A stretch of DNA of 64,000 nt from Escherichia coli (GTDB lineage: Bacteria > Pseudomonadota > Gammaproteobacteria > Enterobacterales > Enterobacteriaceae), in NCBI RefSeq assembly GCF_003334255.1, contig NZ_QOWU01000003.1. One strand, written 5' to 3'. Every line of letters begins with the position of its first letter. Within the stretch, counting starts at the first letter, position 1. The notes beneath the pieces were generated by a model. The model was not told the origin of the DNA and ran no database searches. It saw only the letters and a list, made by a program, of their open reading frames with translations. Position numbers and translations under genes: made by a program. Positions 1,349-3,133 of the stretch are shown in pieces.

Positions 1349-1867
1349 ATGAGTAAGAAAATTGCCGTTTTAATCACTGATGAATTTGAGGATTCAGAAT
1401 TTACTTCACCCGCAGACGAGTTCCGTAAAGCCGGACACGAAGTGATTACCATTGAAAAACAAGCGGGTAAAACGGTGAAAGGCAAAAAAGGAGAAGCCAG
1501 CGTGACCATCGATAAATCCATCGATGAAGTGACGCCTGCGGAGTTTGATGCCCTGCTGCTACCGGGCGGCCATTCACCGGATTATCTGCGTGGGGACAAC
1601 CGTTTTGTCACCTTTACCCGTGATTTTGTGAATAGTGGCAAACCGGTGTTTGCCATCTGTCACGGCCCGCAGTTGCTGATCAGCGCCGATGTGATTCGGG
1701 GGCGCAAACTGACCGCAGTTAAACCGATCATTATTGATGTTAAAAATGCGGGCGCGGAATTTTACGATCAGGAAGTCGTGGTTGATAAAGATCAGCTGGT
1801 TACCAGCCGGACACCGGACGATCTGCCAGCGTTTAACCGCGAGGCGTTACGCCTGCTCGGTGCCTGA
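1349..1867 (+). CDS. yhbO: DJ-1/PfpI family stress-response protein, 172 aa
   Basis: ORF track 1307..1867; start trimmed to [18 protein letters not shown]; conserved AICHGP nucleophile-elbow motif. Confidence 0.85.
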
Positions 1868-2290
1868 GTCGCGTAGCCAAATCATTTTTTTACCAAAGCC
1901 CAGCGTGTTGTCGGTGAATTTGATTTCATCGAGCCGGATTTCCCACACCGGGGCCGACAGCATTCTGGCAACCGGAAAGCGACGATTGTACGCCTTGCGC
2001 GCGAGGTCGCTTTCCTCACCTTCCAGCCTGCGGATCTCACCTTTAAACTGCACACCGCGAATTAACGCTACCGTTTTCGGCTGACCGTTTACCGTTCCGG
2101 CAACCGCAGCCTGCGGCCCACTCATCTGCGCGTGGCGCGTTTTTTCTTCCGTCAAAATGTAGAAGGCGACTTTCTGCGCATCAAAAAGATAAAAGGCATT
2201 AGCGCACCAGAGTTCCCCTTCCTGCTGCACACACCAAGTGACAACATGTTGTTTTGCCAGCCAACGGCTGATGGCGATGAGTGTTTCCAT
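1847..2290 (-). CDS. yhbP: Pyridoxamine 5-prime-phosphate oxidase-like FMN-binding protein, 147 aa
   Basis: ORF track 1847..2290; [19 protein letters not shown]...; convergent with yhbO, 21-nt 3-prime overlap. Confidence 0.75.
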
Positions 2291-2340
2291 TGCTGTTCTC
2301 TTTTATACTGTGGGCCTGACCTTAACATGCGACGCAGACG

Positions 2341-2643
2341 ATGACACCCTGGTTTCTTTACTTGATCCGTACCGCCGACAATAAGCTTTATACCGGGATC
2401 ACCACGGATGTCGAACGCCGCTATCAGCAGCACCAAAGCGGCAAAGGGGCGAAAGCACTGCGCGGGAAAGGAGAACTAACGCTGGTGTTTTCCGCGCCAG
2501 TGGGCGATCGTTCGCTGGCGTTACGGGCGGAATATCGCGTTAAGCAACTGACCAAACGGCAAAAAGAGCGTCTGGTAGCGGAAGGCGCAGGGTTTGCAGA
2601 GCTGTTAAGCAGTCTGCAAACCCCGGAGATTAAAAGCGATTGA
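2341..2643 (+). CDS. yhbQ: GIY-YIG domain endonuclease-like protein, 100 aa
   Basis: ORF track; [31 protein letters not shown] is a GIY-YIG signature. Confidence 0.8.
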
Positions 2644-3133
2644 AATGCTCGTGATACTCAACCAGGCCGGTAACGCCATTCAGCGCGTCATCCGCTAAAC
2701 GATGTACCTGGAAGGCGCTTTCAGTGCCCGGCCAGCGGCAACGCAGATCGTGATGCGCCGCCAGTTCAAAGCCGAAACGACTGTACAGCGCCGGATCGCC
2801 CAGCGTCACCACTGCGGCATAGCCGAACTCATTAAGCGAATCGAGTCCTTCATAGACCAGTTGGCGTGCCAGCCCCTGTCCACGGTATTTTTCATCAACC
2901 GCCAACGGTGCCATGCCGACCCATTGCAGGTCTTCGCCCTGCACATCAACCGGACTAAATGCCACATAGCCAATGACCTGACCTTCGTCATCTGTCGCCA
3001 CCAGCCCCAGCGTCAGAAAGCCATCTTCACGCAGATCGTGAACCAGCTTCGCTTCCGCATCACTTTCGAATGAGCGACGCAGCAGGGCATCAATACCCGG
3101 CGCATCAATGGGAATTTCTACTCGAATTAGCAT
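2630..3133 (-). CDS. yhbS: GNAT family N-acetyltransferase, 167 aa
   Basis: ORF track; acetyl-CoA binding motif region [10 protein letters not shown]; convergent 14-nt overlap with yhbQ. Confidence 0.8.

Follow-up and report, generated by a model that had tools for sequence, protein, structure and literature searches.

Two neighboring pairs of convergent genes, yhbO/yhbP and yhbQ/yhbS, run into each other at their 3' ends in Escherichia coli, and the locus raises the question of whether these overlaps link the expression of the opposing genes or are by-products of dense gene packing. The original prediction, based on the sequence of the 64,000-nucleotide stretch analyzed here (the window), described a compact cluster of poorly characterized genes in which the overlaps force transcriptional and termination interplay, and it likened the pairing of yhbQ and yhbS to stress or toxin-like modules. 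We consider it quite probable that the locus is ordinary, densely packed enterobacterial core chromosome, in which convergent overlaps are by-products of the 3' extension of loosely constrained tails into the conserved 3' end of the partner.

The DNA of the yhbO-ubiT stretch is 100% identical to that of E. coli K-12 MG1655, whose RefSeq annotation already includes all five genes yhbO, yhbP, yhbQ, yhbS and ubiT. The overlap sizes that had been predicted (21 nt for yhbO/yhbP, 14 nt for yhbQ/yhbS, and 7 nt, at 3127-3133, for yhbS/ubiT) agree with both the ORF list and the RefSeq annotation (Table 1). The locus belongs to the core genome, as it was found in 5425 of 5426 E. coli genomes, and the gene order yraR-[yhbO]-yhbP-yhbQ-yhbS-ubiT-ubiU was seen in all 80 Enterobacteriaceae loci that were compared. 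Within the window, three of nine convergent pairs overlap and a fourth is separated by 7 nt. Since 75 convergent overlapping pairs are known among the 663 overlapping pairs of E. coli (PMC4161906), two adjacent cases are unremarkable.

Table 1. Features of the yhbO-ubiT locus. Positions refer to the window; published genome coordinates were converted as window = genome - 3297625.
Feature	Position	Strand	Description
yhbO	1349-1867	+	DJ-1/PfpI family, 172 aa; RefSeq name protein/nucleic acid deglycase
Rho-dependent termination region (published)	1477 (genome 3299102)	-	antisense to yhbO
Small hairpin CGGCTGG-TAA-CCAGCTG	1793-1809	-	38 nt past yhbP stop, within yhbO codons; z = -1.96
yhbO/yhbP convergent CDS overlap	1847-1867, 21 nt		codon boundaries coincide (antisense phase 0)
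yhbP	1847-2290	-	YhbP family, 147 aa, PNPOx-like split-barrel fold; profile NF002900
Divergent intergenic region yhbP-yhbQ	2291-2340, 50 nt		ORF list, sequence
yhbQ	2341-2643	+	GIY-YIG nuclease family, 100 aa; RefSeq name DNA damage response exodeoxyribonuclease YhbQ
yhbS mRNA 'Primary' 3' terminus	2579-2588 (genome 3300204-3300213)	-	PMC10687069 Supplementary Data
Hairpin after yhbS	2588-2625; perfect arms 2590-2600 and 2613-2623	-	7 nt past yhbS stop, in yhbQ tail codons
yhbQ/yhbS convergent CDS overlap	2630-2643, 14 nt		ORF list and RefSeq annotation
yhbS (hqbA)	2630-3133	-	GNAT acetyltransferase fold, Hfq-binding, 167 aa; second gene of ubiT operon
ubiT/yhbS translational-coupling junction (putative)	3127-3142	-	AGGTGA (3137-3142), ACC, ATGCTAA: yhbS ATG overlaps ubiT TAA
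ubiT	3127-3651	-	SCP2-domain accessory factor, O2-independent ubiquinone synthesis (PMC10470549); NF047962, 153.6 bits

The description of the gene products as poorly characterized is outdated for YhbO, YhbS/HqbA and UbiT, and holds for YhbP only, which is the single truly uncharacterized protein of the locus. The proposed membership of YhbO in the DJ-1/PfpI family was supported by TIGR01382 (233.6 bits versus a cut-off of 139) and by a full-length sequence match to PDB 1oi4. The Cys-His of the nucleophile elbow is present in the motif FAICHGP (residues 101-107, 100% conserved). YhbS, predicted to be a GNAT protein, matched PDB 4rs2 (acyl-CoA N-acyltransferase domain) over residues 2-167 (E = 8.8e-111). 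Its translation contains the acetyl-CoA motif R/Q-x-x-G-x-G/A as R84-G-Q-G-L-A89, and homologues are found with PF00583, PF13508 and PF13527. The protein has been characterized as the Hfq-binding protein HqbA (PMC10710024).

YhbQ was likewise confirmed as a GIY-YIG protein by Pfam (PF01541, E = 4.5e-16, residues 4-76), and its closest solved relatives are the UPF0213 proteins PDB 1zg2 (E = 8e-18) and 1ywl. The catalytic residues Y7, Y17, G19, R27 and H31 do not vary among 45 diverse homologues, in which the conservation of E64 is 90% or higher. The domain, these residues and the RefSeq product name suggest that YhbQ is a nuclease. YhbQ resembles the Slx1/YhbQ (URI) branch of the GIY-YIG superfamily in its single domain and its conserved Tyr, Tyr, Arg, His and Glu, but differs from it in having neither a C-terminal zinc finger nor an Slx4-like partner.

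For YhbP, the PNPOx-like assignment held at the level of the fold, but not at the level of sequence profiles. The protein had no Pfam match even at E ≤ 10 and no PDB match by sequence or profile, while one homologue had a weak match to PF01243. The AlphaFold model (pLDDT 88.9, pTM 0.84) gave 113 Foldseek matches in the PDB (E ≤ 1e-3), and the best 50 of these were nearly all PNPOx-like, HugZ/ChuZ/HutZ or Nim-family split-barrel proteins (TM ~0.7). Judging from the modeled fold, flavin or haem may be the cofactor of YhbP.

The overlap on the same strand is of a different kind. A 7-nt overlap between the yhbS start and the ubiT stop was present in 77 of 77 loci, with the Shine-Dalgarno-like AGGTGA inside ubiT in 76 of them, so that by its sequence this is a standard translational-coupling junction. 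ubiT-yhbS is a published operon, induced by FNR and co-transcribed according to RT-PCR (PMC10470549; PMC10710024). The locus studied here is the same as the published ubiT-hqbA (yhbT-yhbS) operon, without difference, and the overlapping stop and start fit the known co-transcription (PMC10470549; PMC10710024). The invariant overlap is a small addition to what has been reported for this operon.

The two convergent overlaps are strongly patterned at the protein level. Among the 80 Enterobacteriaceae loci, variable tails (YhbQ residues 81-100, YhbP residues 141-147) meet conserved partner C-termini of fixed length. The YhbQ tail lies beyond the Pfam domain, which ends at residue 76, and has an identity of 0.41-0.54, with protein lengths ranging from 94 to 106. 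The YhbP tail has an identity of 0.32, with lengths from 140 to 148, and its residues 143-147 are predicted to be disordered (pLDDT < 50). The C-terminus of YhbO, by comparison, is conserved (identity > 0.92), and 47 of 48 distinct YhbO sequences are 172 residues long. The nucleotide overlaps are correspondingly regular, at 21 or 15 nt for yhbO/yhbP wherever yhbO is intact in the 80 loci, and at 14 nt for yhbQ/yhbS in 66 of the 80.

The stop codons have a common origin in the partner's codons. The yhbO tail ALRLLGA is conserved, and in 46 of the 48 loci where yhbO and yhbP overlap, one of its Leu codons (TTA or CTA), read in reverse complement, forms the stop of yhbP. In nearly all of the loci with a 14-nt overlap, the TGA or TAA that ends yhbQ lies antisense to TTY-AAY, the codons for Phe164-Asn165 of YhbS. 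The overlaps thus probably arose by tail extension. In each pair, one protein (YhbP or YhbQ) would have a short unconstrained C-terminal tail, and its frame would run into the neighbor until a stop is reached. That stop would be supplied by the antisense of the neighbor's conserved C-terminal codons, namely YhbO Leu TTA/CTA read as yhbP TAA/TAG, and YhbS Phe-Asn TTY-AAY read as yhbQ TGA/TAA. Purifying selection on the YhbO and YhbS codons that supply the stops would then freeze the overlap lengths, and selection for the overlap as such would not be required, provided that the overlaps are neutral with respect to regulation, as we assume. Alternatively, retention of the 14-nt overlap across genera at only 71-87% YhbQ identity could mean that the overlap, or the arrangement of the transcripts, is itself under selection.

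Convergent overlaps created by 3'-end extension after stop-codon movement have been described (Huvet and Stumpf 2014, PMC4161906; PMC2716372), and the present locus resembles them in its short tail-to-tail overlaps and in the variable tail that continues to the next stop. It differs from these cases in the unusual stability of the yhbO/yhbP and yhbQ/yhbS overlap lengths from genus to genus, which stems from stops provided by conserved partner codons.

Under the tail-extension explanation, yhbO, yhbP and yhbQ would each form an independent transcription unit, with the FNR-activated ubiT-yhbS operon as the fourth, and transcript ends would fall inside the opposing gene because no intergenic space is left. 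The end of the yhbS mRNA is known. Its dominant 3' end has been mapped to genome position 3300206, window position 2581, inside yhbQ and ~49 nt past the yhbS stop, which gives a 3' UTR of ~50 nt, and the fold sequence given for this terminus is that of the hairpin at 2588-2625 (PMC10687069). We find this hairpin to be a stable GC-rich stem of 11 perfect pairs, or ~16 with a one-base bulge (-26.6 kcal/mol, z = -3.85). Counted on the named structure, covariation was 0.143, versus 0.087 in shuffles (0/500). In 29 of 81 loci the region ranked within the 5% most stable windows, so that the hairpin is strong in about one third only. RNAalifold, applied to 75 aligned sequences downstream of yhbS, did not return a family-wide consensus structure. 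As the hairpin is lineage-restricted and the register of its bulge shifts, we relied on the named-structure counts and on the stability ranks of individual loci. The stem is not followed by a U-tract (the tail reads CGCCUUCC), which is why it was missed by our terminator scan. We rejected a repetitive element (REP, for example) as an explanation, since the hairpin is unique in the window.

The mRNA end at ~2581 falls 7 nt beyond the extended stem, and the hairpin probably defines or protects this end. The hairpin may terminate transcription, or may only protect a processed end. The ubiT-yhbS mRNA would accordingly end ~7 nt beyond a hairpin set in the tail codons of yhbQ. According to Dar and Sorek, the ends of Rho-terminated transcripts are reported (2018) to be trimmed back to a stem-loop, giving hairpin-defined ends without a U-tract. 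The yhbS hairpin resembles such ends in its stable GC-rich stem, in the mapped end a few nucleotides beyond it and in the missing U-tract, but differs in being set within the coding sequence of a gene on the opposite strand.

At the other overlap, a Rho-dependent termination region has been reported antisense inside yhbO (Rho score 4.79, p = 2.7e-9; PMC7815308 Supplementary file 2). The minus-strand RNA stopped there probably originates from yhbP, whose read-through transcripts would be halted by Rho within yhbO. The small hairpin at 1793-1809, considered as a candidate 3' structure of yhbP, is conserved in sequence, but it is set in the conserved yhbO QLVTSR codons, and it cannot be interpreted because its conservation is inseparable from the constraint on the YhbO protein. 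The plus-strand region 3' of yhbO, with a T7 run at 1886-1892, was rejected as a terminator, as its folding was no better than that of shuffles (z = -0.62) and the T-run encodes a conserved Lys-Lys of YhbP. The supplementary tables that accompany the two 3'-end mapping papers (PMC10687069, PMC7815308) list no 3' ends for yhbO, yhbP or yhbQ. Other searches were uninformative: consensus scans for promoters and terminators gave match counts not above those of shuffles, promoter-like matches in the 50-nt yhbP-yhbQ intergenic region were not above chance, and an Rfam scan of positions 1-6000 at permissive thresholds returned two chance-level matches only (mir-1285; CRISPR-DR22, E = 0.47).

The published data agree with the original prediction in that the transcripts of both pairs overlap. 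The two mapped ends do not lie well upstream of the overlaps, as the yhbS end is within yhbQ and the Rho region within yhbO. Both yhbO-yhbP and yhbQ-yhbS are listed among the 165 'convergent excludons' of E. coli (ExcludonFinder catalogue, NAR 2025, PMC12288877). Inclusion in this catalogue is defined by RNA-seq transcript overlap only, in at least 50% of 58 transcriptomes (PMC12288877). The two pairs fit this class as convergent neighbors whose transcripts overlap and between which no intergenic space is left, but here the overlap includes coding sequence and not UTRs alone.

It would follow from a functional excludon that convergent transcription through the overlaps makes the expression of the partners mutually exclusive, because RNA polymerases collide, because RNase III cuts the sense-antisense duplex, or both. 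In that case, for example, yhbQ would be repressed by ubiT-hqbA transcription, whether FNR-driven or constitutive, and yhbP would be opposed by yhbO when stress induces the latter. Besides the transcript overlap threshold, which both pairs pass, several observations favor this: given its mapped end, the yhbS mRNA would be complementary over 63 nt or more (window 2581-2643) to a yhbQ mRNA of full length, Rho halts antisense transcription within yhbO (PMC7815308), HqbA expression is reported to be high, and higher anaerobically (PMC10710024), and the overlap lengths are conserved. This conservation, however, is fully accounted for by the protein constraint on the partner, and the criterion of the catalogue is transcript overlap only. 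Moreover, yhbO is missing from 28 of the 80 loci with yhbP unaltered there, and the two genes are separated by 144 nt in one more distant relative. Neither our results nor the papers we found show regulatory interplay caused by overlap at yhbO/yhbP or yhbQ/yhbS, and in these papers we saw no case made for mutually exclusive or anticorrelated expression of either pair, or for its processing by RNase III. Overall, functional excludons appear unlikely.

A related possibility is that the YhbQ tail is dual-use DNA, serving on the opposite strand as the 3' hairpin of the ubiT-hqbA mRNA, with compensatory changes in several genera, and that strong or FNR-induced hqbA transcription silences yhbQ. We regard this as quite improbable.

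GNAT toxins and small nucleases occur in toxin-antitoxin and defense systems, and yhbQ adjoins yhbS in all 80 Enterobacteriaceae loci, which is the background for the proposal that YhbQ, as a nuclease, and YhbS, as an acetyltransferase, make up a two-gene module of the stress or toxin-antitoxin type. The evidence makes this very improbable. Being convergent, yhbQ and yhbS do not share an operon, whereas type II toxin-antitoxin genes are co-transcribed, and yhbS is instead translationally coupled to, and co-transcribed with, ubiT. The sRNA-silencing phenotype seen with a library plasmid carrying yhbS was abolished by deletion of yhbTS, but was little affected, if at all, by deletion of yhbQ or yhbP. 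The adjacency is also not maintained more widely, since no GNAT gene adjoins yhbQ in four of the six contexts compared for more distant homologues. PADLOC returned zero matches for all four proteins, and the near-universal presence of the locus in E. coli is unlike that of mobile toxin-antitoxin loci.

That the overlaps are annotation artefacts, with wrongly extended ORFs and real proteins that end earlier, has practically no chance of being correct: the overlapping tails are poorly conserved and predicted to be disordered, but convergent overlaps depend on stop codons alone. These can be read from the sequence without ambiguity, none occurs earlier in frame, and the same stops recur across genera.

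Together, the above observations are consistent with extension of loosely constrained tails in a densely packed core chromosome. The genes, the operon, the overlaps and the transcript overlaps have all been recorded before, in databases and in the literature. Were the excludons functional, the Hfq regulator HqbA and anaerobic regulation would be linked to the expression of the DNA-damage nuclease gene yhbQ. Under tail extension, the locus would serve as a worked example of how convergent overlaps can be passively frozen when conserved Leu (TTA/CTA) or Phe-Asn codons of the partner act as antisense stops, and of how the 3'-end hairpin of a neighbor's mRNA can hide in an unconstrained protein tail.

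Window positions 1200-3800 are 100% identical to Escherichia coli K-12 MG1655, and of 5426 complete E. coli genomes 5425 have a match (coverage of at least 80% in 5318). The ORF list agreed with what RefSeq annotates on the identical MG1655 DNA. By both, the overlaps of 21 nt (yhbO/yhbP), 14 nt (yhbQ/yhbS) and 7 nt (yhbS/ubiT) in the original prediction are exact, and its gene labels were essentially right. Two adjacent overlapping pairs represent dense local packing and no anomaly: E. coli counts 75 convergent pairs among its 663 overlapping ones (PMC4161906), and of the nine convergent CDS pairs in the 64-kb window three overlap, the third being mtgA/yrbL (4 nt, 51456-51459). 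The latter pair and the convergent yhbX/argG, 7 nt apart (22356-22362), are also in the published list of E. coli convergent excludons, i.e., convergent neighbours with overlapping transcripts (PMC12288877). E. coli MSB1_9I (NZ_LR890508.1) carries IS1A within the yhbO-ubiT cluster, associated with a YhbQ variant of 110 aa with identity to YhbQ limited to the first 84% of its length. The yhbO of E. coli SCPM-O-B-8794 (L003) has an apparent frameshift, and aligns to residues 1-155 only, after which its ORF continues for 238 nt into yhbP.

Genes of the cluster and its surroundings (window coordinates), with block-wise C-terminal conservation in related loci
Gene	Position	Strand	Source	C-terminal residues	Identity to E. 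coli	Protein length
yraR	586-1221	-	ORF list + RefSeq			
yhbO	1349-1867	+	ORF list + RefSeq	161-172	>0.92	172 aa in 47/48
yhbP	1847-2290	-	ORF list + RefSeq	141-147	0.32	140-148 aa
yhbQ	2341-2643	+	ORF list + RefSeq	81-100	0.41-0.54	94-106 aa
yhbS	2630-3133	-	ORF list + RefSeq	161-167	0.80	167 aa in 66/73
ubiT	3127-3651	-	ORF list + RefSeq			
ubiU, ubiV, yhbW	after ubiT	+	RefSeq/ORF list			

A YhbQ scan with one genome per species yielded 80 Enterobacteriaceae loci (71-98% identity), all with the gene order yraR(-) [yhbO(+)] yhbP(-) yhbQ(+) yhbS(-) ubiT(-) ubiU(+). The stop-to-stop overlap of yhbQ and yhbS was 14 nt in 66 of the 80 loci; elsewhere it was 4, 17 or 25 nt long or a small gap took its place. 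Of 48 loci with intact yhbO, 46 had a yhbO/yhbP overlap of 21 or 15 nt.

Each convergent pair joins one constrained and one unconstrained C-terminus, and YhbP residues 143-147 have a pLDDT below 50 in the AlphaFold model. Codon boundaries coincide in the yhbO/yhbP overlap, and the yhbP stop (TAA/TAG) reads, on the other strand, as a yhbO leucine codon (TTA/CTA): Leu166 gives the 21-nt overlap and Leu168 the 15-nt one, both within the conserved ALRLLGA tail. Likewise, the yhbQ stop (TGA/TAA) is antisense to YhbS Phe164-Asn165 (TTY-AAY) in the conserved HFNRF end. Stop codons of the unconstrained genes, yhbP and yhbQ, thus arise opposite conserved codons of the partner, and because the stops form there, purifying selection on YhbO and YhbS suffices to freeze the overlap lengths. 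The yhbO codon antisense to the yhbP stop (window 1847-1849 and related loci) is always TTA or CTA, which are rare leucine codons in E. coli; its choice looks dictated by the need of yhbP for a stop. The published route to convergent overlaps, 3'-extension after stop movement (PMC4161906; PMC2716372), is the same as here.

The original prediction also held that convergent overlap forces interplay between the transcripts, and transcript overlap is indeed real and documented (PMC12288877; mapped ends in PMC10687069 and PMC7815308). The catalogue of 165 convergent excludons, each seen in 50% or more of 58 MG1655 transcriptomes, includes both pairs (PMC12288877). Since there is no intergenic space, transcript ends must fall inside the opposing gene. 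The 'Primary' yhbS 3' terminus mapped by TRS/Term-seq (genome 3300204-3300213, dominant 3300206, 3' UTR of 50 nt; PMC10687069) corresponds to window ~2581 (window = genome - 3297625), so that any full-length yhbQ mRNA would carry 63 nt or more that are complementary to yhbS mRNA (2581-2643). On the minus strand, a Rho termination region (genome 3299102, Rho score 4.79, p=2.7e-9; bicyclomycin DirectRNA-seq, Adams et al., PMC7815308) falls at window 1477, antisense to yhbO and ~370 nt beyond the yhbP stop; yhbP read-through is the probable source of the RNA stopped there. Both mapped ends contradict termination well upstream of the overlaps. That the overlaps regulate expression at yhbO/yhbP and yhbQ/yhbS seems unlikely to us, given that selection on YhbO and YhbS can by itself account for their lengths.

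The yhbS 3' end lies 7 nt past the extended stem of a hairpin at 2588-2625 (-), the very sequence folded for this terminus in PMC10687069. The hairpin begins 7 nt past the yhbS stop, within the variable tail codons of yhbQ, and contains a perfect 11-bp inverted repeat, GGGTTTGCAGA/TCTGCAAACCC (arms 2590-2600 and 2613-2623), present as a single copy in the window. It folds with -26.6 kcal/mol (z=-3.85), and no U-tract follows it on either strand. Relatives have hairpins of other sequence at the equivalent place (e.g., Buttiauxella TCTTTTGAAGGCCTG...CAGGTCTTCAAAAGA; Franconibacter GGCGTCTGGAGGTCTG...CAGATCTCCAAACGCC). With the E. coli structure imposed on an alignment of 75 sequences, 64.2% of cells were paired, versus 58.2% for shuffles (0 of 500 reached the observed value) and 34-53% when partner columns were slid; the covariation score was 0.143 versus 0.087, and one pair was divided GC:24 / CG:21. 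Judged from this alignment, compensatory changes preserve the hairpin in several genera. It is not universal, and RNAalifold returned no consensus structure. By stability, the 45 nt after the yhbS stop ranked in the top 5% of local windows at 29 of 81 loci, those of Escherichia, Citrobacter, Franconibacter and Buttiauxella among them; most loci of Klebsiella and Enterobacter, and Kosakonia, fell below. Klebsiella, Enterobacter, Kluyvera and Pseudocitrobacter lineages without the E. coli-type hairpin have an alternative, ACGAGGCGCTCTTTCTGGCGCTTCGT (-), ~45-70 nt past the yhbS stop inside the conserved KRQKERL codons of yhbQ (loci L049, L050, L056, L064, L067, L070-L073, L075-L077, L079-L081), which might play the same role.

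ubiT and yhbS are co-transcribed and FNR-induced, with yhbS also expressed aerobically, probably via a promoter inside ubiT (PMC10470549; PMC10710024). Their junction, AGGTGA-ACC-ATGCTAA (Shine-Dalgarno-like motif at 3137-3142), is by its sequence a standard translational-coupling junction: all 77 related loci share the 7-nt overlap of yhbS ATG and ubiT stop, and 76 of them have AGGTGA. The ubiT-ubiU intergenic region, location of published FNR sites, also holds a CRISPR-DR22 Rfam match (3683-3719 (+), E=0.47; 21.9 bits, gathering score 50) that is almost certainly due to chance. With an oppositely oriented neighbour at either end, yhbO, yhbP and yhbQ are probably each monocistronic. The divergent yhbP and yhbQ start codons are just 50 nt apart (2291-2340), so each promoter must lie at least partly inside the other gene; a consensus scan of the interval found no convincing promoter.

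In E. coli, yhbO is placed between yraR and yhbP (1222-1867). It is missing in 28 of the 80 loci, including E. albertii, E. whittamii, many Citrobacter, Trabulsiella, Buttiauxella and Kluyvera (presence/absence entry: L006, L007, L011, L012, L014, L016, L018-L021, L023-L025, L027, L037, L039, L040, L059, L060, L063-L066, L069, L074, L079, L080). This patchy distribution suggests repeated loss or gain. In the 26 yhbO-less loci where yraR was found, the yhbP stop mostly precedes the yraR start by 3-42 nt (77 nt in L079, 91 nt in L080), a short distance that gives yhbP-yraR the look of a tandem operon.

The suggestion that yhbQ and yhbS form a functional, toxin-like module is not supported. The two are transcribed towards each other, with yhbS part of the ubiT operon. 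On a yhbS library plasmid, the sRNA-silencing phenotype persisted almost or fully unchanged when yhbQ or yhbP was deleted and was abolished by yhbTS (ubiT-yhbS) deletion. None of the yhbO, yhbP, yhbQ and yhbS products matched PADLOC defence models. Among the contigs of six more distant YhbQ homologues, one (63% identity) keeps the whole cluster, with the yhbQ/yhbS overlap still 14 nt and a yhbO-yhbP gap of 144 nt, and one of two at 66% retains yhbP, yhbQ and the GNAT gene. Unrelated genes neighbour the remaining four (the second at 66%, 64% in a Vibrio-like context with LuxQ, 58% and 55%). The adjacency is best read, from these comparisons, as lineage-level synteny and no conserved two-gene system.

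The GIY-YIG catalytic set of YhbQ is intact: an alignment with 44 diverse homologues (45-66% identity) shows no variation at W4, Y7, Y17, G19, R27, H31, K68 and K75 and conservation of at least 90% at E64. YhbQ has one GIY-YIG domain (residues 4-76; Pfam E=4.5e-16), with the UPF0213 proteins 1zg2 and 1ywl as nearest solved relatives; 'DNA damage response exodeoxyribonuclease YhbQ' is its RefSeq product name only. The description of the cluster as poorly characterised holds for YhbP, its sole truly uncharacterised member, and not for YhbO or YhbS. YhbO is a DJ-1/PfpI protein (TIGR01382, 233.6 bits, cut-off 139; structure 1oi4) with a sizeable literature on deglycase or glyoxalase activity. YhbS, a GNAT protein of solved structure (4rs2) now named HqbA, binds Hfq at its distal face and needs no acetyltransferase activity to restrict weak RNA binders (PMC10710024), and UbiT is an SCP2 accessory factor of O2-independent ubiquinone synthesis (PMC10470549). 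YhbP had no sequence match in Pfam or PDB; its confident AlphaFold model (pLDDT 88.9) matches PNPOx-like split-barrel proteins, including the haem proteins HugZ, ChuZ and HutZ (TM ~0.7), so the predicted PNPOx-like nature stands at the level of fold and not of sequence.

Together, the overlap observation is correct and its interpretation in part supported, by the documented transcript overlap and the retained YhbQ catalytic residues; the finding is ordinary and already known. Our analysis makes small additions: the yhbO presence/absence polymorphism, the fold-level assignment of YhbP, the hairpin in the yhbQ tail with its tie to the published yhbS 3' end, and the stop-codon logic that accounts for the frozen overlap lengths.
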